A stretch of 64,000 nt of DNA from Escherichia phage mio. Positions 3,507-59,901 of this stretch are shown here, one piece after another; positions within the stretch are counted from its first letter, which is position 1, and each line of letters opens with the position of its first letter. Location: the sequence record MN850631.1; one strand, given 5' to 3'. The notes beneath the pieces were generated by a model. The model had not been told where the DNA came from, did no database searches, and worked only from the letters and a program-made list of their open reading frames with translations. The position numbers and the translations under genes were made by a program.

Positions 3507-3608
3507 TTTAACTTATCTCTCAATTCACAATAAGAGAGTCCTAAAAAGAACCCTAGTAAGACAGAACCTATGAACAACCCAATAATACTCTCTGCCATAT
3601 CTAACATC

Positions 3609-3650
3609 CAATAAAAAGGTGATGTAAGCCTACCAAGACCCACATCACCT
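3609..3650 (-). terminator. rho-independent terminator downstream of nrdD
   Basis: Inverted repeat AGGTGATGT (3617-3625) / ACATCACCT (3642-3650) with 16-nt loop; on the minus strand the stem is followed by TTTTTATT. Confidence 0.5.
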
Positions 3651-3657
3651 TGTCAAG
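3646..3657 (-). promoter_or_regulatory. conserved CACCTTGTCAAG box (minus-strand TTGACAAGGTG, -35-like)
   Basis: Same box recurs at 18907, 59637 and (opposite orientation) 21696; TTGACA followed 18 nt later by TAGGCT on the minus strand. Confidence 0.3.
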
Positions 3658-18732: not shown

Positions 18733-18906
18733 GTAAGCCTCTTTTAAGTAACTATTAAGTTTTAATCTTTTATCTTAACGTATTCTATACGTTATACTTT
18801 AAAGCTTTTTAAAAGCTATTAAATAATCTTTTAAGAGTTTTAAAGTATCTGTATAGTTAAACTGTTAAGTAACCTTTTAAGTAGAAACCCACTTCGCAAA
18901 GATTAA

Positions 18907-18930
18907 CACCTTGTCAAGTACATTGTCAAC
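18907..18930. promoter_or_regulatory. conserved divergent-region box CACCTTGTCAAGTACATTGTCAAC
   Basis: Nearly identical 24-nt box at 59637-59660; lies between divergently transcribed blocks; followed by TATAAT at 18939-18944. Confidence 0.4.
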
Positions 18931-18989
18931 TTGCTTTTTATAATTTTTTGCAGTAATGTATGAGGTTAATGATTTTAGAGGGAGTAAAA

Positions 18990-21689
18990 ATGGAAAACGT
19001 AGATTTTAAAAACTTACATTTGGTTGGTGATACAGAAACTGATGGTTTACTCCTTGAGTTCACTAAAGTTCACGTAATGGCCTTTGCAGACTATAAATCT
19101 GACGATGAAGAGCCACCTGTATGGGTCTTTACAGATGAGCCTATCCTCGGTCACAAGTACACTAAGTACATTAAGGGTGGCTTACGAGAAGGTATTGAGT
19201 TTGCGTTAAAGGCAAAACGTCTTTGCATCCATAATGGTCTCGGTTATGACTGGTGGGTTTTCAATCACATTGCACCTGATTTATGGAACTTTGATAATCC
19301 AAAGTGTAAACCGTGGAGTAATTTCTTTCAGGACTCTCTTATCCAGTCTCGTGTTCAGTGGATGGATAGACCAACTCCAAAGGGTTATAAAGGTGCTCAT
19401 GGCTTGGCTGCATGGGGTGCTCGTGTTGGTGTTCGTAAGCCAGAGATTGAGCATTGGGGTGTGTGGAATGCAGAAATCTTCACTCGTGTTGTAGAGGATA
19501 TCCGTATTAACGCCAAAACTAAACGGGCACTTGATAATGAGTATCTCAAGCTTAAGAAGTGTGGCATAGACACTTATGAAACCTATATGCGAGCCAAAGA
19601 GACATCTTTCTGGATGAGCCAGCAAGCTATTAATGGTTGGAAAGCTGATAAAGAGCTTATGGAGTTCCATGTAAAGGAACTTGACAAGTTGACTAATGAG
19701 CTTGCTTCAGAGGTTGAACCACATCTGCCTCCAACTATTAAGACTAAAGGTAAAGTTACTGGAGAAGAGTTTGCAAAAGCTTGGAATGAGTATGTTGAAA
19801 CATTTGGTCATGCAGATGGACTGAAGAGAATTACCAAGTACCCTAAGACAAAGTACCGTCAGCAGGTACGTAATGGTGAGATGCAGACATATGAAATCAA
19901 ACCATTTGGTAAGCCAACTACAAAGATTTTTAACATTGAAAAGAGAAATTGCTATACACCAACCAACACTGTAACTGGTGAAGAGTACAAGGAAGGCTTT
20001 GTAGCAATGAAGGATGCTCGTGCAATTTGCAATGAGTTGAACGCAAAGATTGGTAAGAAATGCAAAGACTGGAAGCCAGTAAAAACAGTCAAAACTGTGA
20101 AGTACTATAACAGTCATGTTGTTAACCACTTTGAACTTGAGTCAAGTCGCTACACAGGTTTGATTGATGCACCATATACACCAATTGAGTTCGAAGTTTC
20201 TCGTATGACTCAGGTAGCAGTTGTTAAAGACTACTTGAAATCAGTTGGTTGGATTCCAGATGACTGGAACTATAAGAAAGACTCTGATGGTCGCCCTGTC
20301 AAAGTTTGTCGTTTCAAAGACAATAAAAAGATGATTACAAAACATCCTAAGTGGCAGGAAATGGTTGAGCGGTGTGGTTTGAGCTATGTTGAACATGAAG
20401 GTGTCCAGTACATTGAGCATAACTGGTCTGTGAAGAAATACACAGATTTGCTTGAGCCTTGCTTAATCCGTACTTCACCAAAACTTACTGAATCATCTTA
20501 TGATACGATTGAAGGTGAACTTGGACAGAAGATTGCTAAGTACTACACTTTGATGCACCGACGCAGAACTATTGAGAACTCAAAGGATGATGAAAAAGGT
20601 TGGTTGAACCAGATTCGCCCTGATGGTCGCCTTAGTGCTGGCGCAATGGTGTTTGGTACTTCAACTGGACGTATGACACAATATGGTATTGTAAACGTAC
20701 CGTCTGGTGCTGCTGTCTATGGAGAACCAATGAGGGCAGTGTGGATTTGTGAGGAAGGTACTAACGTTGTCTCTGTAGATATGAACTCAGCCCAGCTAGT
20801 TCTTCTTTGTAACTTTATGGGTGATAAAGACTTCACCAAAGCGGTAACGCAAGGTAAAGAAGAGATTGAGTTTATTCGTCAAGAAGATGGACGCTATTAC
20901 TGCAAACATTTTGATGAGTACCTAAACCCAGAGATTGATAAGTACCTTCGCTATGACTCTGAGAATGACCTGTACGTTGTCTATTCAGGGACTGATGCAC
21001 ATACACTTAACAGTGTTTACTTTAGCTTGAATGATGAGCAGGATATCTTGACTTGTCGAGCTACTCAGGATGAGAATCTTCTTCATGAGATTAGCAAAGG
21101 TCGTAAGAAAGCTAAGAATGGTATCTATGCACTACTGTTCGGTGCAGGTGATGAGAAGTTTGCTAAGACGATTAAAGCTGCGACTACTCAGGAAGGTGCG
21201 CTGACTAAACAGACTTACTTTATACGTTTGCCTAAAATTAAGAAGCTGTTAGATGACTTGGAAGCTGACTACAAAGCAACTAAAAAGGCGCTTGAAGAGG
21301 TGTTTGGTAAGACTGCTGCAATCTCTAAAGGGGGTTTTGTAAAGGTTGCTGGAGCTTGGTTGTGGTGTAAATCTCCACATAAGTTATTGAATTATTTGCT
21401 CATGGGTTCGGAAAGTCAGATTCAGAACGAGGCAATTAACCTTGCTTGCCGTCGTATGATTGACGAAGGTTTGATGAAGTTGAATGGTCGCAAACCAGCT
21501 ATAGGTGCTCGTTTATTGTGCTCCTATCACGACGAGACGAGTTGGGAATGCCCAGAAAGTATGACGGCAGAGGTGAAGGCTGTCACTGATTGGTATTACG
21601 GGCAAGCTTCTAAGAACTTAGGTCTTAAGAAAGAAACACTTGTTACAGGTACTGGTAAGGTTGGCAAAAGCTGGTATGAGGTACACTAA
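18990..21689 (+). CDS. DNA polymerase, family A with N-terminal 3'-5' exonuclease
   Basis: ORF 18960..21689; start placed at ATG 18990 because of strong RBS GAGGGAG 8 nt upstream; Exo I motif LVGDTETDGL near N-terminus; about 900 aa. Confidence 0.8.
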   Translation: MENVDFKNLHLVGDTETDGLLLEFTKVHVMAFADYKSDDEEPPVWVFTDEPILGHKYTKYIKGGLREGIEFALKAKRLCIHNGLGYDWWVFNHIAPDLWNFDNPKCKPWSNFFQDSLIQSRVQWMDRPTPKGYKGAHGLAAWGARVGVRKPEIEHWGVWNAEIFTRVVEDIRINAKTKRALDNEYLKLKKCGIDTYETYMRAKETSFWMSQQAINGWKADKELMEFHVKELDKLTNELASEVEPHLPPTIKTKGKVTGEEFAKAWNEYVETFGHADGLKRITKYPKTKYRQQVRNGEMQTYEIKPFGKPTTKIFNIEKRNCYTPTNTVTGEEYKEGFVAMKDARAICNELNAKIGKKCKDWKPVKTVKTVKYYNSHVVNHFELESSRYTGLIDAPYTPIEFEVSRMTQVAVVKDYLKSVGWIPDDWNYKKDSDGRPVKVCRFKDNKKMITKHPKWQEMVERCGLSYVEHEGVQYIEHNWSVKKYTDLLEPCLIRTSPKLTESSYDTIEGELGQKIAKYYTLMHRRRTIENSKDDEKGWLNQIRPDGRLSAGAMVFGTSTGRMTQYGIVNVPSGAAVYGEPMRAVWICEEGTNVVSVDMNSAQLVLLCNFMGDKDFTKAVTQGKEEIEFIRQEDGRYYCKHFDEYLNPEIDKYLRYDSENDLYVVYSGTDAHTLNSVYFSLNDEQDILTCRATQDENLLHEISKGRKKAKNGIYALLFGAGDEKFAKTIKAATTQEGALTKQTYFIRLPKIKKLLDDLEADYKATKKALEEVFGKTAAISKGGFVKVAGAWLWCKSPHKLLNYLLMGSESQIQNEAINLACRRMIDEGLMKLNGRKPAIGARLLCSYHDETSWECPESMTAEVKAVTDWYYGQASKNLGLKKETLVTGTGKVGKSWYEVH

Positions 21690-21750
21690 TTAGTATTGAC
21701 AAGGTGCTCAGGGAAGAGTACCTTATACTATATCTTGTATAGGAGGTCAC

Positions 21751-25100: not shown

Positions 25101-25313
25101 ATGGCTCTTAAAAAGTTACATCCCAGAAGCGGTTATGGTAAGATAATTGACGATACAGACGGCTTTACAGTCTTTACAGTTATCTGTCAAGATGATTCAC
25201 AGATTGAAAAGGCTCTTGATGATTATCTTAATGATGAACGTGAAAAGGTTAGAGCTACAAACATAGACTCATTGATTGATACTCCACGCAAACGGAAGAA
25301 GAAAGATGAATGA
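25101..25313 (+). CDS. hypothetical protein
   Basis: 70-aa ORF. Confidence 0.35.
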   Translation: MALKKLHPRSGYGKIIDDTDGFTVFTVICQDDSQIEKALDDYLNDEREKVRATNIDSLIDTPRKRKKKDE

Positions 25314-25605
25314 GGTTTTTGACCCTTATGCTCCACAAGATGATTGGGAGGCTGACAGAGAGGCTGAAATGGAGAGTTATATTTGTCCAATGGATGTAGA
25401 CGAAATGAGAGACTTCGTTTCACATCGTTTTAAGAGAGAGATTAAAACCAGAGGTCTTTCTCAAGAACAAGTTGCTAAAATTTGTGGTATCTCTCAGGCT
25501 CGTGTATCTAACATAATCCACCTCACTGGTAATGTCTCTCTTGAGTATATGTTGGAAGTATGCGAAAAATTTGGTGTTAATTTTAATTTAAGGCTGGCAG
25601 ATTAA
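25306..25605 (+). CDS. helix-turn-helix DNA-binding protein
   Basis: ORF 25276..25605 trimmed to ATG 25306; HTH-like LSQEQVAKICGISQARVSNIIHL. Confidence 0.45.
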   Translation: MNEVFDPYAPQDDWEADREAEMESYICPMDVDEMRDFVSHRFKREIKTRGLSQEQVAKICGISQARVSNIIHLTGNVSLEYMLEVCEKFGVNFNLRLAD

Positions 25606-52168: not shown

Positions 52169-52244
52169 TGGAGAATCCGAAGGGACTCGAACCCTTATAA
52201 ACCTGTTTTGCAGACAGGCACATATCCATTTCTGTCACGGATTC
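52169..52244 (-). tRNA. tRNA-Cys (anticodon GCA)
   Basis: 76 nt, hand-folded cloverleaf; acceptor GAATCCG/CGGATTC, anticodon loop CTGCAAA, T-arm GGGTTCGAGTCCC, encoded CCA. Confidence 0.7.
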
Positions 52245-52248
52245 AAAT

Positions 52249-52341
52249 TGGAGGAAGATACCAGACTTGAACTGGTACACCGATTTCTCAGCTACTGGCA
52301 GTTTAGCAAACTGCTCCCTTACCTTTTAGGGTTAATCTTCC
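52249..52341 (-). tRNA. tRNA-Ser (anticodon GCU), type II
   Basis: 93 nt; acceptor GGAAGAT/ATCTTCC, anticodon loop TTGCTAA, long variable arm, encoded CCA. Confidence 0.6.
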
Positions 52342-52342
52342 A

Positions 52343-53077
52343 TTATTTCTGTAATGCGCTCTTCATTTCTGGTGTTGCAATAGTATCAATCACACCAGTT
52401 TTACAAGCATCATCAAACCAGTCTGGTAAGATACCTGCTAAGAACCCATTGATATTCGTTTTAAGGTACTCTGCAATAAGGGCAGCTTCTTCTTCAATCA
52501 TCTGCACAACTTCATCTGCATAAGCTGTAATCTTTGAGATACCTTCATTAATCTTACTAACAGCCTGATTAGCTAAATCAGAAACAGTATCAAGACCCTT
52601 ATCAATAGCGTCTTGTAAGTCACTTAACACACCATTAACACTATCTAGTGTGCTGTTAATCATGTCAATAGCTTTTTGACCATATTCTGTAGCAACACCC
52701 ATAATACCACTGAATGGTGTACAACCAACTTGTTCTCCTGCTGCACCCATAACATTGGAATAACCCTTTGCTACCTGCATACGTGATGAAAACTCATCAA
52801 TAGATTTTTGACCATAGTCTGTTAGGGTCTTAGTAGTTGCTGTAGTGCTTGTCAGACTTGTTGTAAAGCTGTTTAGAAGGACTGTTGTAAGTCCAGCAGC
52901 AACAAGTTTCTCCTGCATTGTAGGGTCTGTTACAGAGCTAATAGAGCTTACAAGTGATGTAGAGGCAGCTACGGTTCCACCGAGAACTGCTGCACCAGTA
53001 ATAAGTGGGTTAGAAAACCCTTTACCGGTTTTTAAGAGATTAAAAATCTCCTTACCTTGTTCTGTCATCTCTTTCAT
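52343..53077 (-). CDS. hypothetical protein embedded in the tRNA array
   Basis: ORF 52343..53140 trimmed to internal ATG 53077 because the upstream part overlaps tRNA-Phe; Thr/Ser/Ala-rich. Confidence 0.35.
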   Translation of the reverse strand: MKEMTEQGKEIFNLLKTGKGFSNPLITGAAVLGGTVAASTSLVSSISSVTDPTMQEKLVAAGLTTVLLNSFTTSLTSTTATTKTLTDYGQKSIDEFSSRMQVAKGYSNVMGAAGEQVGCTPFSGIMGVATEYGQKAIDMINSTLDSVNGVLSDLQDAIDKGLDTVSDLANQAVSKINEGISKITAYADEVVQMIEEEAALIAEYLKTNINGFLAGILPDWFDDACKTGVIDTIATPEMKSALQK

Positions 53078-53093
53078 TAAGCACCTTTGAAAT

Positions 53094-53169
53094 TGGTAGT
53101 CCAGTGGGATTTGAACCCTCTTCTCATGTTTTTCAGACACGCGCTTTAACCATATAAGCTACTTGGACT
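53094..53169 (-). tRNA. tRNA-Phe (anticodon GAA)
   Basis: 76 nt; anticodon stem CGTGT/ACATG, loop CTGAAAA; T-loop GGTTCAAATCC; CCA encoded. Confidence 0.6.
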
Positions 53170-53175
53170 ATAAAT

Positions 53176-53251
53176 TGGGGTGACCTACGGGAGTCGAACC
53201 CGTATAGACCATGTTCACAGCATGGGTCATTGCCATTTATGATAAGGCCAC
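53176..53251 (-). tRNA. tRNA-His (anticodon GUG)
   Basis: 76 nt; anticodon stem CCATG/CATGG, loop CTGTGAA; T-loop GGTTCGACTCC; CCA encoded. Confidence 0.7.
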
Positions 53252-53282
53252 ATTTAAGGACTCTCGTAAGAACCCTTAGAAG

Positions 53283-53358
53283 TGGCAGCGGCATAAGGAT
53301 TTGAACCTTAATAGGACAGCTTCAGAGACTGCTGCATTGCCAGTTATGCTATACCGCT
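53283..53358 (-). tRNA. tRNA-Gln (anticodon CUG)
   Basis: 76 nt; D-stem GCAT/ATGC, anticodon loop CTCTGAA, T-stem TAAGG/CCTTA; CCA encoded. Confidence 0.55.
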
Positions 53359-53363
53359 AAATT

Positions 53364-53434
53364 TGGTACTCCATATCGGATTCGAACCGATACATAACAC
53401 AGATTTTAAGTCTGGCCTCTCTGCCAATTGGAGT
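53364..53434 (-). tRNA. tRNA, anticodon UAA (Leu-type anticodon on a short class-I scaffold)
   Basis: 71 nt; T-arm ATCGG-TTCGAAT-CCGAT, anticodon loop CTTAAAA, no long variable arm, A at discriminator; atypical. Confidence 0.4.
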
Positions 53435-53444
53435 AATGGAGCAT

Positions 53445-53519
53445 TGGCGGGGGATGTTGGAATTGAACCAACTTCTTCGATTTCAAAGACCGAGGTTTTA
53501 ACCTTGTAAACTAATCCCC
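53445..53519 (-). tRNA. tRNA-Gln (anticodon UUG)
   Basis: 75 nt; anticodon stem TCGGT/ATCGA, loop CTTTGAA; T-arm GTTGG-TTCAATT-CCAAC; acceptor has two mismatches. Confidence 0.5.
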
Positions 53520-53528
53520 TTTAAATCT

Positions 53529-54086
53529 TTACTTTCTCAGTGGATGAATAAAGAATGCCAACATAACTCTTTCCCTTGAGAATGCTCTTTCTTCTGGGAC
53601 AACACTTTTTAGTTTCCATCCAACATAAATTCTCCAGTAAAACTGTTTACCAAAGACTTTAATTGATGGGATAAAAGCGAATAATCCCCAAGCATTACTG
53701 TTCCACATTAGGAGATAACCAGTCTGATTATCTTCAGGGTCAGAACTTACGTTGATATTACCTTTCCACTTAGTAACATCTTTTACATCTCTTCCTAACA
53801 CATGGTAAGAGAAGTTATAAGCTTTGTTTCTCCAGAGCCATCCAACTCTCTGCAAATAGACACCCAGCTTACCAATCTTTCTAATCTTAGCCCATCTTTT
53901 AACGTGGCCTTCGTCACCATCAATCGGGTTGTCGTAGGTTTCCATCCATCTGAATCCAAAAGGTAGGTGTCCTTTCTTCTCACTGTAGAATGGAACTACG
54001 AAAGGTGCTAAGATGACTGCTAGGGTTGCTGCAAATGGCTCTAGTAAAGCTAGGAAAATCCATGAAGCATACTTCAAATATCTCAT
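53529..54086 (-). CDS. hypothetical membrane protein embedded in the tRNA array
   Basis: 185 aa; N-terminal hydrophobic segment WIFLALLEPFAATLAVILAPFVVPF, Trp/Lys/Arg-rich remainder. Confidence 0.35.
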   Translation of the reverse strand: MRYLKYASWIFLALLEPFAATLAVILAPFVVPFYSEKKGHLPFGFRWMETYDNPIDGDEGHVKRWAKIRKIGKLGVYLQRVGWLWRNKAYNFSYHVLGRDVKDVTKWKGNINVSSDPEDNQTGYLLMWNSNAWGLFAFIPSIKVFGKQFYWRIYVGWKLKSVVPEERAFSRERVMLAFFIHPLRK

Positions 54087-54105
54087 CTAAATAGCCTCTT
54101 AAAAT

Positions 54106-54183
54106 TGGTGTTCCAAGACGGATTCGAACCGTCACTAATACAAGGTTTGAGCTTGCATCCTCTGCCAATTGGGATACTGGAAC
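54106..54183 (-). tRNA. tRNA, anticodon CAA (Leu-type anticodon on class-I scaffold)
   Basis: 78 nt; T-arm GACGG-TTCGAAT-CCGTC, anticodon loop CTCAAAC with extended stem; short variable region; atypical. Confidence 0.4.
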
Positions 54184-54184
54184 A

Positions 54185-54259
54185 TGGTACTCACTAAAGG
54201 ACTTGAACCTTTTTCTTCATCTTGTAAGGGTGATGTTTTACCATATAAACTAAGCGAGT
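54185..54259 (-). tRNA. tRNA-Val (anticodon UAC)
   Basis: 75 nt; D-stem GTTT/AAAC, anticodon loop CTTACAA, T-arm AAAGG-TTCAAGT-CCTTT; CCA encoded. Confidence 0.65.
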
Positions 54260-54354
54260 GTGAAAGAGGTCTGAAGTTGTGCCGCTAACTCAACTCCGTG
54301 GAATTTGTTACGGTCTTCAGTTGACACAAGCGGTCTTTCACTTGACCTCTGAAT

Positions 54355-54431
54355 TGGTGCTGCTCACAGGACTCGAACCTGCATTTCCATCCTTACAAGG
54401 GATGTGTAATAGCCAATTATACGAAAGCAGC
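54355..54431 (-). tRNA. tRNA-Thr (anticodon UGU)
   Basis: 77 nt; anticodon stem CATCC/GGATG, loop CTTGTAA; T-loop GGTTCGAGTCC; CCA encoded. Confidence 0.65.
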
Positions 54432-54438
54432 ATTAATT

Positions 54439-54513
54439 TGGAGCATCCAGAGGGAATCGAACCCTCAACCTCAGTTTGGAAGACTGTAATTTTCCCGTTT
54501 AAACTATGGATGC
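54439..54513 (-). tRNA. tRNA-Gly (anticodon UCC)
   Basis: 75 nt; anticodon stem CAGT/ACTG, loop CTTCCAA; T-arm GAGGG-TTCGATT-CCCTC; CCA encoded. Confidence 0.65.
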
Positions 54514-54519
54514 ACTAAT

Positions 54520-54595
54520 TGGTGGAGAAGCAGGGAATTGAACCCTGTACTTAAGTTTGCAAAACTTATGTTTTAACCATGTAAACTACATCCCC
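54520..54595 (-). tRNA. tRNA-Ala (anticodon UGC)
   Basis: 76 nt; anticodon loop TTTGCAA; G3-U70 wobble in acceptor stem (classic Ala identity element); CCA encoded. Confidence 0.65.
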
Positions 54596-54601
54596 GATAT
54601 C

Positions 54602-54677
54602 TGGTACAGGTGGAGGGAATTGAACCCATCGTCTTACTGATTAAGAGTCAGCCGCATAACCATTTTGCTACACCTGC
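54602..54677 (-). tRNA. tRNA-Lys (anticodon CUU)
   Basis: 76 nt; anticodon loop CTCTTAA; near-duplicate scaffold of the UUU Lys tRNA at 56281-56356; CCA encoded. Confidence 0.55.
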
Positions 54678-54684
54678 ATTAATT

Positions 54685-54762
54685 TGGTAGGAGACAAGGG
54701 ATTCGAACCCTCAAACATCTCGTTCTAAGCGAGATAGGTTTACCAATTACCATCAATCTCCC
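54685..54762 (-). tRNA. tRNA, anticodon UAG (Leu-type anticodon on class-I scaffold)
   Basis: 78 nt; anticodon stem TCTCG/CGAGA, loop CTTAGAA; T-loop GGTTCGAATCC; atypical D region. Confidence 0.4.
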
Positions 54763-54843
54763 ATTAAATCTTTTTAGAGAACTTCTAAGAACCTAAGCAA
54801 CAAGGTTCCACAACAAGCTGTAATAACCTTAGAAGCCCTCTAA

Positions 54844-54864
54844 AAAGACCTAAAAAAGGTCTTT
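54844..54864 (-). terminator. terminator-like hairpin inside the tRNA array
   Basis: AAGACC-(T)6A-GGTCTT hairpin; U-run follows on the minus strand; weak. Confidence 0.3.
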
Positions 54865-55018
54865 GCATAGTCTTGTTTAATCCGGTGACTAGAACCTTTG
54901 GAGAGCTTGATATTATCTCTTCTCCGTGACACCTACTAGGTGCTTTATTAGTGTGTACGACAACACACGAGGGATACCAAAGCAACATCCTAATGAAGCT
55001 TGGCTTTAAATCTTATTA

Positions 55019-55108
55019 GGCGGTAAGTAAAGGAGTCGAACCCTCACCGTATCTCTACAGTGGCAACAGTTTTCAAGACTGTTTGGCTGCCATTAGCCGC
55101 TACCTACC
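55019..55108 (-). tRNA. tRNA-Ser (anticodon UGA), type II
   Basis: About 88 nt; anticodon stem ACAGT/ACTGT, loop CTTGAAA; long variable arm; 3' CCA not encoded (CCT). Confidence 0.55.
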
Positions 55109-55121
55109 CCTAATAAGACTT

Positions 55122-55204
55122 TGGCATGGGACGGAGGAGTTGAACCCCTTTGAAACGGTTTTGGAGGCCGTTGCTCATGCCTTAGAGTCTTAACATCGTC
55201 CCAC
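55122..55204 (-). tRNA. tRNA-Trp-like (anticodon CCA), atypical 83 nt
   Basis: Acceptor GTGGGAC/GTCCCAT, anticodon loop CTCCAAA, T-loop GGGTTCAACTCC; enlarged D region. Confidence 0.4.
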
Positions 55205-55341
55205 ACTATAATTCGAAGCTTACCGTATTATCTCAACACTGTAAAGCCCCTTCTCAGATTATTTACATGTTCTGGAAAACATGAGATACAGACCACCTCC
55301 CTACAGGAAGACCCGCTTAGGTCGTCTAAGTAATCTGCTAA

Positions 55342-55689
55342 CTAATACTTTGCATGTCTTACCCTATGGCAATTTGAACATAGCAAAACACATTTGTCAA
55401 GTTCATCTTTTAGCTCTTGAGAGAACTTAAGGCTTTTCCTATGACCAATGTTAAAATCTTTATCTGAAGGATTCAAATGATGGAAGTCATACACTGCTGG
55501 ATGATACTTTTTACCACAATCATGACAAACCCCACCTTTGTACTCAATAGCTGAGAGTTTAAGTGCTCTTTGTCTTTCTATGGTTTGCTCATTAACACAC
55601 TTTTTACAGTATGAATGAGTTCTTCTACCATCTTTCATGTAGAAATCATTTTCATCCTTGCTAAGTTTGCACCTAATACAAGTTTTCAT
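55342..55689 (-). CDS. HNH homing endonuclease
   Basis: ORF 55342..55740 trimmed to ATG 55689 (upstream part overlaps a tRNA); CxxC ... HHLNP ... CSNCHRVRH HNH/zinc motif. Confidence 0.6.
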   Translation of the reverse strand: MKTCIRCKLSKDENDFYMKDGRRTHSYCKKCVNEQTIERQRALKLSAIEYKGGVCHDCGKKYHPAVYDFHHLNPSDKDFNIGHRKSLKFSQELKDELDKCVLLCSNCHRVRHAKY

Positions 55690-55703
55690 GATTTCTCCAA
55701 AAT

Positions 55704-55785
55704 TGGTCGAGGCGGCAGGACTCGAACCCGCATACTCCACTTACTCGGTTAACGGCGGTTTAGAAGACCGCTGAGATACGCCCCG
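55704..55785 (-). tRNA. tRNA-Arg-like (anticodon-type loop CTTCTAA = UCU), structurally anomalous
   Basis: 82 nt; T-arm GCGGG-TTCGAGT-CCTGC and acceptor CGGGGCG/CGCCTCG, but the UCU hairpin sits where the D-arm should be, followed by 23 unassigned nt. Confidence 0.35.
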
Positions 55786-56078
55786 TAATTATCTTTAAAG
55801 ACTCTCTTAGAAAGCCCTTAAAGATGCCCACCTTATTAATCATACCGTGGGCTAGTACGCCAAATTCTTTGATGAGGGATTGGAAGACCTCACTGGTGTT
55901 TAGCCTATCAAGCTACTGCCAGAAAAACATTGTCGTTTGCATTTATTTTAAATTTGCAAAATAGACGCTACGCAACGAAAACTATTCAGAATATGTACAA
56001 CAAATTTCCCCACATTGTGTTACGTCTAACGCTCATGTATTGGTGTTTGAATTATACATATTATGAAGTATTTTAGTT

Positions 56079-56107
56079 ACTATAAAGTGGTCACATCTCA
56101 ATGTCAA
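56079..56107 (-). promoter_or_regulatory. sigma70-like promoter driving minus-strand transcription into the tRNA array
   Basis: Minus-strand TTGACA (rc of 56102-56107), 17-nt spacer, TATAGT (rc of 56079-56084). Confidence 0.5.
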
Positions 56108-56122
56108 CAACTTTATTGAAAT

Positions 56123-56198
56123 TGGTACTGGTAGGTGGAATCGAACCACCGATATTCCCTTATCAGGGGAGTGTTATAACCTTCTTAACTATACCAGC
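56123..56198 (-). tRNA. tRNA-Ile (anticodon GAU)
   Basis: 76 nt; anticodon loop CTGATAA, T-arm GGTGG-TTCGATT-CCACC; CCA encoded. Confidence 0.65.
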
Positions 56199-56199
56199 T

Positions 56200-56276
56200 T
56201 GGAGGTTCAGATGGGAATCGAACCCACATTCATAGGGCTTATGAAACCCCTGCATTACCTTATCTGCGACTGAACC
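56200..56276 (-). tRNA. tRNA-Met (anticodon CAU; three G-C pairs in anticodon stem, initiator-like)
   Basis: 77 nt; anticodon stem GGGGT/GCCCT with loop TTCATAA; T-loop GGGTTCGATTCCC; CCA encoded. Confidence 0.55.
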
Positions 56277-56280
56277 ATAT

Positions 56281-56356
56281 TGGTAGAAGTGGAGGGATTC
56301 GAACCCATCGCCTGTCAGATTAAAAGTCTGCCGCATCACCATTCTGCTACACTTCC
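56281..56356 (-). tRNA. tRNA-Lys (anticodon UUU)
   Basis: 76 nt; anticodon loop CTTTTAA; scaffold nearly identical to the CUU Lys tRNA at 54602-54677. Confidence 0.6.
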
Positions 56357-56361
56357 ATTAA

Positions 56362-56504
56362 ATTATCTTTGTAGATAAGCTACCCAGACTTGCTTAAGGT
56401 CTGTAGCGATGTGCATTGTTGGGTTTAAATCTAGAATTTACCCTTTCACCCTTTGTGGTCGCATACTCACAGGTAAGCTTAATAACTTATCTACAAAGAT
56501 AATT
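56362..56504 (-). ncRNA. structured element with 19-bp perfect terminal inverted repeat (candidate ncRNA or mobile-element remnant)
   Basis: AATTATCTTTGTAGATAAG (56362-56380) and its exact reverse complement CTTATCTACAAAGATAATT (56486-56504) enclose about 105 nt with internal hairpins; no T-loop; strand unknown. Confidence 0.35.
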
Positions 56505-56505
56505 A

Positions 56506-56636
56506 CCAGACCGTTGTTTATCATCTTAAGTGCTACCATTACACCAACTCGACCTCTGCCGAGTGAAGGAATCGAACCTTCGCCTTTTCTTTACCGAGAA
56601 ATAGATTGTTTAAGCTTTGCTGTAAACGGTCTTCTG
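56506..56636 (-). ncRNA. circularly permuted tRNA-like element (candidate Y-RNA-like ncRNA or permuted tRNA gene)
   Basis: In minus-strand sense: variable-arm hairpin TTTCT-CGGTA-AGAAA, T-arm GAAGG-TTCGATT-CCTTC, acceptor-like hairpin ACTCGGC-AGAG-GTCGAGT, D-arm-like GTG-TAATGGTAG-CAC, then TTAAGAT pairing back to ATCT and an 8-bp outer helix AGACCGTT/AACGGTCT. Confidence 0.45.
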
Positions 56637-56810
56637 TAAATTTGTTGAGCCAGACCAAGTTTTAAATTTTTCAAAATTAAATTGGCTTGAAATTTTAAGT
56701 AACTTGCTGTATTTGGTCTTCTGCTCCTTTAAAGAATACTCGTAAGAACTCTTTAAGGGAGGGGCTAAATAGCCCTCTCAAAACATCATTTTGAAATACT
56801 TATTATAATT

Positions 56811-56888
56811 TGGCGGTTACGAAGGGACTCGAACCCTCATCATCTCCCGTGACAGGGGAGTATTTTAACCATATTAAACTACATAACC
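56811..56888 (-). tRNA. tRNA-Asp (anticodon GUC)
   Basis: 78 nt; anticodon stem CTCCC/GGGAG, loop CTGTCAC; T-loop GGGTTCGAGTCCC; CCA encoded. Confidence 0.65.
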
Positions 56889-56894
56889 TTCATT

Positions 56895-56982
56895 TGGTGT
56901 GCCGTGTAGGAGTCGAACCTACCGAGTCTCAATGACAAGGGATTTACAGTCCCCACCGCTACCATCTACGGGATAACGACAC
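56895..56982 (-). tRNA. tRNA-Tyr (anticodon GUA), type II
   Basis: 88 nt; anticodon loop CTGTAAA, long variable arm, T-arm GTAGG-TTCGACT-CCTAC; CCA encoded. Confidence 0.6.
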
Positions 56983-56991
56983 ATTTAAATT

Positions 56992-57068
56992 TGGCGGTTA
57001 GTCAGGGATTCGAACCCTGTGCCATTCGCTTAACAGGCGACCGCACATACCTTATGTGCTTCCTAACC
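56992..57068 (-). tRNA. tRNA-Asn (anticodon GUU)
   Basis: 77 nt; D-stem GCAC/GTGC, anticodon loop CTGTTAA, T-loop GGGTTCGAATCCC; CCA encoded. Confidence 0.65.
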
Positions 57069-57145
57069 TTAATACATTGCCAGACCGTGTTTTTTCTTTT
57101 ATCCGCAAAAAGTAGTTTGTTGCTGCATACAGTCTTCTGCAAAAT

Positions 57146-57222
57146 TGGAGGCGGGTGCAGGAGTCGAACCTGCCGATACCATGCTAATGAGACATGTGAG
57201 ACGCCCTTTCTCTATACCCGCA
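57146..57222 (-). tRNA. tRNA with CAU anticodon (Met or Ile2-type)
   Basis: 77 nt; anticodon stem CATGT/GCATG, loop CTCATTA; 1:72 mismatch in acceptor; T-arm GCAGG-TTCGACT-CCTGC. Confidence 0.5.
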
Positions 57223-57313
57223 ATTCTTAATGACCAGACCAAATCTCTTCTTTGTCCGATTTACCTTCAGATGAATAAGATTAAGTTTGCTGTAATTGGT
57301 CTTCTGTCAAAAC

Positions 57314-57391
57314 TGGCGTTCCAGAAGGGATTTGAACCCTCAGATATCCACTTTGAAAGAGTGGTGACTTTACCATTTTGTCTACTGGAAC
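57314..57391 (-). tRNA. tRNA-Glu (anticodon UUC)
   Basis: 78 nt; anticodon stem CCACT/AGTGG, loop CTTTCAA; T-loop GGGTTCAAATCCC; CCA encoded. Confidence 0.65.
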
Positions 57392-57398
57392 ATTAATT

Positions 57399-57476
57399 TG
57401 GTCTCTGTTGGAGGACTTGAACCTCCGGCCTTACCGCCCCAAACGGAACGCTCTACCAAGCTGAGCTAAACAGAGA
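57399..57476 (-). tRNA. tRNA-Pro (anticodon UGG)
   Basis: About 78 nt; canonical D-arm AGCTCAGCTTGGTAGAGC, anticodon loop TTTGGGG, T-arm GGAGG-TTCAAGT-CCTCC; CCA encoded. Confidence 0.7.
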
Positions 57477-57593: not shown

Positions 57594-57622
57594 ATATTAA
57601 AGGGTATTAAACACATTGTCAA
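57594..57622 (-). promoter_or_regulatory. sigma70-like promoter at the head of the tRNA array
   Basis: Minus-strand TTGACA (rc of 57617-57622), 17-nt spacer, TAATAT (rc of 57594-57599); overlaps a 7-bp hairpin GGGTATT/AATACCC just downstream of the Rsr-like gene stop. Confidence 0.5.
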
Positions 57623-57640
57623 TACCCTTTTTAAAACTTT

Positions 57641-59509: not shown

Positions 59510-59636
59510 TGGTATGCCTCTTATAAGACCTCTTAAAAGGCTTTTAAGATAAAAGATAGATATCCAGAAAGATATCTGTTTAAATAGCCTTTTTAGAGGA
59601 ACCTTTTAAGTTATCTTCTAAGTATTTATAAGCCTA

Positions 59637-59660
59637 CACCTTGTCAAGTACCTTGTCAAC
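59637..59660. promoter_or_regulatory. conserved divergent-region box CACCTTGTCAAGTACCTTGTCAAC
   Basis: 23/24 identical to the box at 18907-18930; followed by plus-strand TTGACT (59685-59690) + 17 nt + TACCAT. Confidence 0.4.
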
Positions 59661-59901
59661 AACTTTTTTAACTTGCAATAGTTCTTGACTTGTTGTATGG
59701 ATTACTGTACCATCTTACTTAAAGCTGTAGGTCTGCCTTGTTCTACAAAGGAGACTTAATGAGAAAATCAAATAAACCGAAGAAAGGTAAGAATACCAAT
59801 CACTGTAAGGAATCAAAAAGGGTAGAGTTAATCTACTATTCATCCTCTGAAATTGGTCTGTACCTGTTCTTTCAAAATTACAGAAGACAAGAGGATTATC
59901 T

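Follow-up and report, generated by a model that had tools for sequence, protein, structure and literature searches.

A conserved box in the divergent control regions of a Felix O1-like phage as the probable −35 region of host-type promoters

Two intergenic regions of the window, by which we mean the whole 64,000-nucleotide stretch of Escherichia phage mio (MN850631.1) that was analyzed, lie between diverging genes, and both contain the same 24-nucleotide box. A first-pass annotation had suggested that the box represents a phage-specific promoter class or the binding site of a regulator, and the question is which of these, if either, describes it. The 4-kb stretch around the box is 96% identical to Enterobacteria phage UAB_Phi87, and matches to the same stretch comprise 263 phage records, nearly all of them Felixounavirus; by its sequence, the phage is a Felixounavirus of the Felix O1-like kind. 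Phages of this kind are in wide use in Salmonella typing, biocontrol, and therapy.

Genomic setting and occurrence of the box

The gene order of the window is that of UAB_Phi87 and Felix O1. A leftward block (18732 to 1, minus strand) contains genes for an ORF97-like protein, dNMP kinase, primase/helicase, exonuclease, NrdAB, and NrdDG, and a rightward block (from 18981, plus strand) contains those for DNA polymerase, small genes, ligase, a helix-turn-helix (HTH) protein, frd, and td. The second leftward block (59509 to ~28.9 kb, minus strand) begins with genes for a DUF5681 protein and a 471-amino acid protein and includes 24 tRNAs and the terminase, portal, capsid, tail, and fiber genes; position 59760 opens the second rightward block, on the plus strand. 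Genes thus diverge from only two intergenic regions of the window, 18733-18980 (region A) and 59510-59759 (region B), corresponding to the Felix O1 96/97 and 40/41 intergenic regions, respectively. Both regions, together with four transcription units, were described in the Felix O1 genome paper (PMC3185647).

The 24-mer CACCTTGTCAAGTAC(A/C)TTGTCAAC is found at 18907-18930 and 59637-59660 (plus-strand reading), exactly where the first-pass annotation had placed it and once in each divergent region; a search of the window found no further match at three or fewer mismatches, and none is expected from shuffled sequence. On the minus strand, the box is GTTGACAAnGTACTTGACAAGGTG, also written GTTGACAA(T/G)GTACTTGACAAGGTG, that is, two exact TTGACA hexamers 12 bp apart. 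The arrangement TTGACA-N6-TTGACA occurs twice in the window against an expectation of 0.03. A looser tandem, TTGACA-N9-TTGACA followed by TAACTT, is present in the early region of Felix O1 (L153, 11269-11300), so that tandem hexamers also occur outside the two divergent regions. A scan of IMG/VR for TTGACAN6TTGACAAG listed matches in unrelated contigs and was uninformative because 14 specified bases are too few.

The half-box TTGACAAGGTG has four exact copies, at 3646-3656 (minus), 18907-18917 (minus), 21696-21706 (plus), and 59637-59647 (minus), where 0.05 would be expected by chance. Two of these belong to the double boxes; the other two are the recurrences already reported in the annotation, followed, as reported, by TAGGCT after an 18-nt spacer and by TACCTT after a 17-nt spacer. 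All four copies are intergenic and co-oriented with the next gene, and the whole genomes of UAB_Phi87 and Felix O1 have the same four sites in orthologous places and no others. Exact copies of the element AACCTTTTAAGT occupy 18871-18882 and 59600-59611 and, in plus-strand order, precede the box by 24 and 25 nt, respectively. The annotation had taken it to lie upstream of the box, and here the annotation needs correcting: the box would act on the minus strand, and AACCTTTTAAGT lies downstream of it, within the predicted 5' leader.

Predicted promoters at the double and single boxes

In region A, the double box (18907-18930, minus strand) reads GTTGACAATGTACTTGACAAGGTG, with its upstream TTGACA at 18929 to 18924 and its second at 18917 to 18912, the latter forming part of TTGACAAGGTG (18917 to 18907). 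The predicted −10 of the leftward promoter P_L(A) is TAATCT (18900-18905, minus strand), 18 nt after the upstream hexamer and preceded by TGn, and its start would lie near 18892-18894. In region B, the double box (59637-59660, minus strand) reads GTTGACAAGGTACTTGACAAGGTG; the upstream hexamer, the putative −35 of P_L(B), occupies 59659 to 59654 and the second hexamer 59647 to 59642, the predicted −10 is TAGGCT (59631-59636, minus strand) at 17 nt from the upstream hexamer, and the start would lie near 59623-59625. An exact TTGACA on the strand of the downstream gene is thus present at all four sites, and each is followed by a −10-like hexamer: TAATCT (18 nt) and TAGGCT (17 nt) at the double boxes, and TAGGCT (18 nt) and TACCTT (17 nt) at the single ones. 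Each of the four −10 hexamers is identical to TATAAT at three of six positions, which puts the sites below the threshold of standard scanners and of BPROM; none of the four is in the BPROM table of UAB_Phi87. The upstream hexamer is preceded by AAAAAG-nnn, a tract also present before most of the other TTGACA promoters in the window and in Felix O1, and no other consensus −35 promoter was found between the box and the first gene in either region. A second promoter built on the downstream hexamer was considered and rejected, there being no TAnnnT 16-18 bp after that hexamer in either region or in the relatives.

Taken together, the box is probably the −35 region of two host sigma-70-type promoters on the minus strand, directed leftward from the divergent control regions. 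From what is observed (the motif, its orientation and conservation, the hairpins, and the orthologous promoters), we infer polymerase binding, start sites, and timing as follows. The host RNA polymerase would bind the upstream TTGACA, with its AAAAAG-type A-tract, together with the weak TAnnnT 17-18 bp downstream, and transcription would begin ~7 nt past the −10. P_L(A) would drive the replication and nucleotide-metabolism operon leftward, P_L(B) would drive the DUF5681 gene, the tRNA cluster, and the morphogenesis genes, also leftward, and the two single TTGACAAGGTG sites would be internal promoters of the same family as the double boxes. The 24-tRNA cluster (52169-57475, minus strand), between the DUF5681/471-amino acid genes and terminase, lies downstream of P_L(B), and further canonical TTGACA promoters are seen around it at 56107, 57531, 57622, and 59125. 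Literature searches returned no mapped transcription start for any Ounavirinae phage, no Felixounavirus transcriptome, and no such motif. RT-PCR of Felix O1 gave a coarse timing in which ORFs 41, 42, 96, 97, and 98 peak at 25 min, and this shared peak fits a single promoter family.

The rightward genes have promoters of their own. P_R(A), in front of the DNA polymerase gene (18931-18959, plus strand), is read from the sequence as TTGCTT-N17-TAATGT and stands back-to-back with the box at a distance of 1 bp; in relatives, its TTGCTT is invariant and TAnnGT is kept with a variable center. P_R(B) (59685-59713, plus strand; TTGACT-N17-TACCAT) is 25 bp from the box and invariant in all relatives compared. 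Since these separate promoters serve the opposite strand, the box is accounted for by the leftward promoters. The TTGTCA hexamers of the plus strand were also tried as rightward −35 elements and discarded, as they stand at a wrong or unconserved distance from conserved −10-like elements.

The first single site (3608-3656, minus strand) follows directly on the nrdD stop codon and has TTGACA at 3656 to 3651, an 18-nt spacer, and TAGGCT at 3632 to 3627. From the last A of TTGACA to just beyond TAGGCT, the sequence forms a 16-bp hairpin (3651 to 3616) followed by TTTTTATT; its predicted folding energy is −23.5 kcal/mol (z −4.9), and with the 16-bp stem and the UUUUUAUU U-tract, 3616-3651 (minus strand) has the makeup of an intrinsic terminator. 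The stem is supported by compensatory changes in two relatives (L086 and L103, GGTGAT/ATCACC to GGTAGT/ACTACC), and the TTGACA of the site is kept in the Moogle/Susp group. The second single site, after the DNA polymerase gene (21696-21724, plus strand), is TTGACA-N17-TACCTT, and its spacer holds a 9-bp hairpin (AAGGTGCTC/GAGTACCTT, 21701-21724) that lacks a U-tract and so corresponds to an intrinsic terminator in part only. The Erwinia-phage relatives keep TTGACA-hairpin-TATCTT (N17) after the polymerase gene with a different stem. In Felix O1, the polymerase gene and the site are separated by an HNH gene; the site has thus stayed next to the downstream gene, which is the behavior expected of a promoter. 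At both single sites, AGGTG is the 5' arm of the hairpin and is therefore not a recognition element there.

A hairpin in or around the −35/−10 spacer thus recurs, after nrdD and after the DNA polymerase gene, and the same arrangement is seen at 57600-57625 (minus strand) of the window and, in Felix O1, between rIIA and rIIB (L153, 2298-2330) and at terminator t42. HNH/homing-endonuclease-like genes are found directly after nrdD in some genomes (L078-L082, L088) and are missing there in others, and HNH-like genes follow the DNA polymerase gene in some of L130-L152 and as Felix O1 ORF95; such insertions displace or replace single-box sites.

Conservation, leaders, and the second hexamer

Homologous regions were taken from IMG/VR for about 20 relatives in three genera (Felixounavirus, Mooglevirus, and Suspvirus), a set that includes Moogle, Michonne, SUSP1, and SUSP2, whose DNA polymerases share 90-93% identity with the one encoded in the window. 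Neither hexamer varies among the 19 distinct relative sequences of region A or the 15 of region B, with four and six variable bases between them, respectively, and the hexamer-to-hexamer spacing is 12 bp in every sequence. The −10 of region A is TA(A/G)TCT in all relatives, position 3 alone varying; in region B, variation is confined to the three central bases (TAGGCT, TAGCCT, TAAGTT, TAGTGT), with the T, the A, and the final T fixed throughout. Across region B from the first hexamer through the −10, all 16 hexamer and TA..T positions are invariant, as against 11 of the 13 other positions that are variable (Fisher p = 2e-6). This is the conservation to be expected of a sigma-70-type promoter, and region A conforms to it as well. 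The idea that the double boxes might form a spacer hairpin was rejected, as the bases between the hexamers vary without compensation. The AGGTG extension is variable, being TTGACAACGTG, TTGACAAGATG, TTGACAAGCTG, or TTGACAGGGTG in relatives, TTGACAAGGTA in Felix O1, and TTGACATGATG in Erwinia phages.

More distant phages allow the tandem to be placed. Erwinia phage phiEa21-4 has TTGACA-N16-TAGAAT before its DUF5681 homologue and, before its ORF97 homologue, TTGACA-N17-TACATT together with an annotated TTGACT promoter; in Yersinia phage P778 the hexamers stand back-to-back (TGTCAAGACTTGACAAG), one giving TTGACA-N17-TAAAGT and its partner having TATCGT, likewise at 17 bp. The 12-bp tandem was not found in the orthologous regions of either phage, and it is thus specific to the clade of Felixounavirus, Mooglevirus, and Suspvirus. 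Judged by their motifs, these distant Erwinia and Yersinia relatives have plain predicted promoters at the orthologous places. A search for finer phylogenetic resolution found no intermediate clade, the Hafnia phage being a Kolesnikvirus.

These data bear directly on what had been proposed for the box. That it belongs to a promoter is borne out by the TTGACA on the strand of the downstream gene, the conserved TAnnnT at 17-18 bp, and the promoter-like conservation; that the promoter class is phage-specific is not, since the recognition elements are those of the host sigma-70 consensus and the AGGTG extension is not strictly conserved. On sequence grounds, the four sites are most likely promoters of the host type, their −35 matching the consensus and their −10 being weak. 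The second hexamer is conserved as strictly as the first and has no role in a simple promoter model, and for this hexamer the other half of the proposal, a regulator binding site, may hold.

The leaders contain further shared elements. On the minus strand, ACTTAAAAGGTT is found at 18871-18882 in region A (about +12 to +23 of the predicted transcript), where it includes one of three CTTAAAAG copies in the leader, and at 59600-59611 in region B (about +12 to +24); in the proposed transcripts it would fall at about +12 of a structured, AT-rich leader. The CTTAA(A/T)AG core of the region A element is conserved in relatives. No 8-mer of the window is more enriched in intergenic sequence than CTTAAAAG/CTTTTAAG; it has six intergenic copies in the two leftward leaders (18741, 18828, 18874, 59532, 59541, and 59603), and it also clusters in the non-coding terminal-repeat region of Felix O1 (L153, 12600-13000). 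CTTA(A/T)AAGAGGC is the ribosome-binding context of both first genes, and an alignment of region A with region B scores above shuffled controls (z about 5.7). The region A leader (18733-18893, minus strand), which precedes the replication/nucleotide-metabolism operon, is AT-rich and conserved and has a long hairpin; its fold has a z-score of −2.7, and among 10 sequences the hairpin shows two compensatory base pairs, which are changes in the outer helix CTTAAC/GTTAAG in Mooglevirus and Suspvirus relatives. The region B leader is nearly invariant and accordingly gives no covariation signal. A search of Rfam with both regions returned nothing credible. An RNA role or an operator function of the leader elements is possible.

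An operator would give the second hexamer a purpose. The box, and above all its invariant second TTGACAAGGTG, might be bound by a phage-encoded DNA-binding protein, perhaps together with ACTTAAAAGGTT, the candidate being the HTH_3 protein encoded at 25306-25605 (Felix O1 ORF85); such a protein, binding across the promoter, would set the timing of the four promoters or shut them off, and it could do so with the promoter reading intact. The second hexamer is invariant in both regions despite its position in a promoter spacer, which is normally free to vary, an exact 11-mer is common to all four sites, and ACTTAAAAGGTT is similar to ACTTGACAAGGTG and keeps a constant distance in the two regions. 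As to distribution, the HTH_3 protein and the double box both occur in Felixounavirus, Mooglevirus, and Suspvirus, and neither was found in the Erwinia/Yersinia relatives, but this co-occurrence amounts to one phylogenetic split. XRE-type HTH proteins, moreover, usually bind inverted repeats, whereas the repeats here are direct and 12 bp apart; within the direct repeats of the hexamer, a palindrome is found in the second box alone (4-1-4, CTTGACAAG). AGGTG varies among relatives and is explained by the hairpin at the single sites. Finally, a CRISPRi-ART screen scored agp035, the SUSP1 homologue of the HTH_3 protein, as neither Fit nor Semi-Fit, whereas it scored the polymerase, exonuclease, NrdA, and structural genes as Fit (PMC11879866); the screen does have false negatives. 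With agp035 not Fit and the operons containing Fit genes, the HTH_3 protein is probably not an essential activator of them. An operator of this kind is the main alternative considered, but on balance an unlikely one.

The HTH_3 protein (XRE-type, 25306-25605, plus strand) has a weak, sub-threshold similarity to sigma-70 region 4. A more specific proposal, which we put forward as a distinctly speculative one, is that the second TTGACAAGGTG and the CTTAAAAG-type leader elements form the operator set of a clade-specific regulator, perhaps the HTH_3 protein, that would compete with sigma region 4 for TTGACA and thereby time the replication and morphogenesis operons. If true, such a regulator would account for the temporal program of Felix O1-like phages. 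In either form, the invariant second −35 hexamer is a defined puzzle and, from its conservation, could be an operator.

The conservation of regions A and B could also be that of replication origins or other cis-acting DNA sites, for example, transcription-primed origins as in T7, and the box would then belong to that machinery besides any part in making mRNA. Both regions are AT-rich, rich in repeats and palindromes, and far more conserved than the flanking genes, and region A lies between T7-like replication genes. GC skew merely mirrors the coding strand here and so carries no independent origin signal; two of the four sites are inside operons, away from any such context; and nothing that we found demands an origin. 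We therefore consider this explanation very unlikely and retain the leftward promoters as the preferred reading.

Comparison with known systems

The plus strand of the box shows TTGTCAA twice in direct orientation, and a host response regulator of the OmpR/PhoB type might bind these repeats in activating the rightward promoters. The pho box consists of CTGTCAT repeated every 11 bp, and the TGTCA core is indeed repeated here in direct orientation; in close relatives of region A, TATAAT follows the second repeat by 10 nt, a spacing that recalls the geometry of pho promoters. The resemblance to Pho boxes and OmpR operators ends with the direct repeats, their core, and the plus strand. Their operators have 7-bp repeats, an 11-bp period of about one helical turn, and a fixed distance to the −10, whereas the period here is 12 bp, the TATAAT is not conserved in the Moogle/Susp group, the nearest rightward promoter of region B is 25 bp away so that the geometry differs between the regions, and each single site has one repeat that points with the downstream gene. 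Of all the readings weighed, this one strikes us as extremely improbable.

Phage T4 offers two further models. The element TATAAATA, which T4-type late promoters have at −10 in front of late genes, has only three copies in 64 kb, and the copy at 59623-59630 is not conserved in the Moogle/Susp group; T4-type late promoters were therefore set aside. The MotA box of T4 middle promoters, (a/t)(a/t)(a/t)TGCTT(t/c)A, is centered at −30 and replaces the −35. In common with those promoters, which depend on sigma appropriation by AsiA and MotA, the sites described here have a −10 reduced to TAnnnT, a conserved upstream box shared by several promoters, and genes that peak in mid-infection. They differ in that the box is the host −35 consensus at −35 rather than TGCTT at −30, and a middle-type promoter was rejected because the leftward promoters lack a TGCTT box and show TTGACA at −35 instead; the TTGCTT beside the region A box is the −35 of the opposite, rightward promoter. 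Also unlike T4, Felix O1 was reported to encode no factor that changes polymerase specificity; the same paper found no phage RNA polymerase and gives temporal control as unknown (PMC3185647).

The single sites resemble intrinsic terminators that overlap the next promoter, in that a hairpin ends the upstream gene at 3616-3651 and at 21701-21724 and the first of the two is followed by a U-tract. The difference is that the hairpin here is placed inside the next promoter, separating its −35 from its −10, an arrangement for which we know of no named class.

The closest relatives of the box are sigma-70 promoters themselves, and one of them had already been proposed at this locus: P41 of Felix O1, TTGACA(N15)TATAGG at 21515-21541, was predicted in 2010 (Whichard et al. 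2010, PMC3185647), and its −35 is the upstream hexamer of the region B box. The same paper stated that there was no other such sequence in the 40/41 or 96/97 regions (PMC3185647), yet Felix O1 does hold the same double box in its 96/97 region. Both divergent control regions thus have the same leftward promoter architecture, to which two internal sites of the same family can be added, and the family spans three genera. What is gained is a set of testable start sites and handles for engineering, namely where to place reporters and which bases to mutate; the result refines the annotation of a phage group with partly annotated transcription signals and does not amount to a novel type of system. 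The preferred reading takes the box as a −35 region, that of host-type promoters whose −10 is weak, in a tandem form confined to the clade. With sigma-70 promoters, P41 included, it shares the exact TTGACA, a 17-18 bp spacer, a −10 with T-12, A-11, and T-7, an upstream A-rich tract, and an orientation toward the genes. It departs from them in having a second exact TTGACA 12 bp downstream, in the spacer (about −23 to −13), which is conserved in both regions, and from the P41 prediction in that the same architecture in the 96/97 region went unrecognized in 2010.
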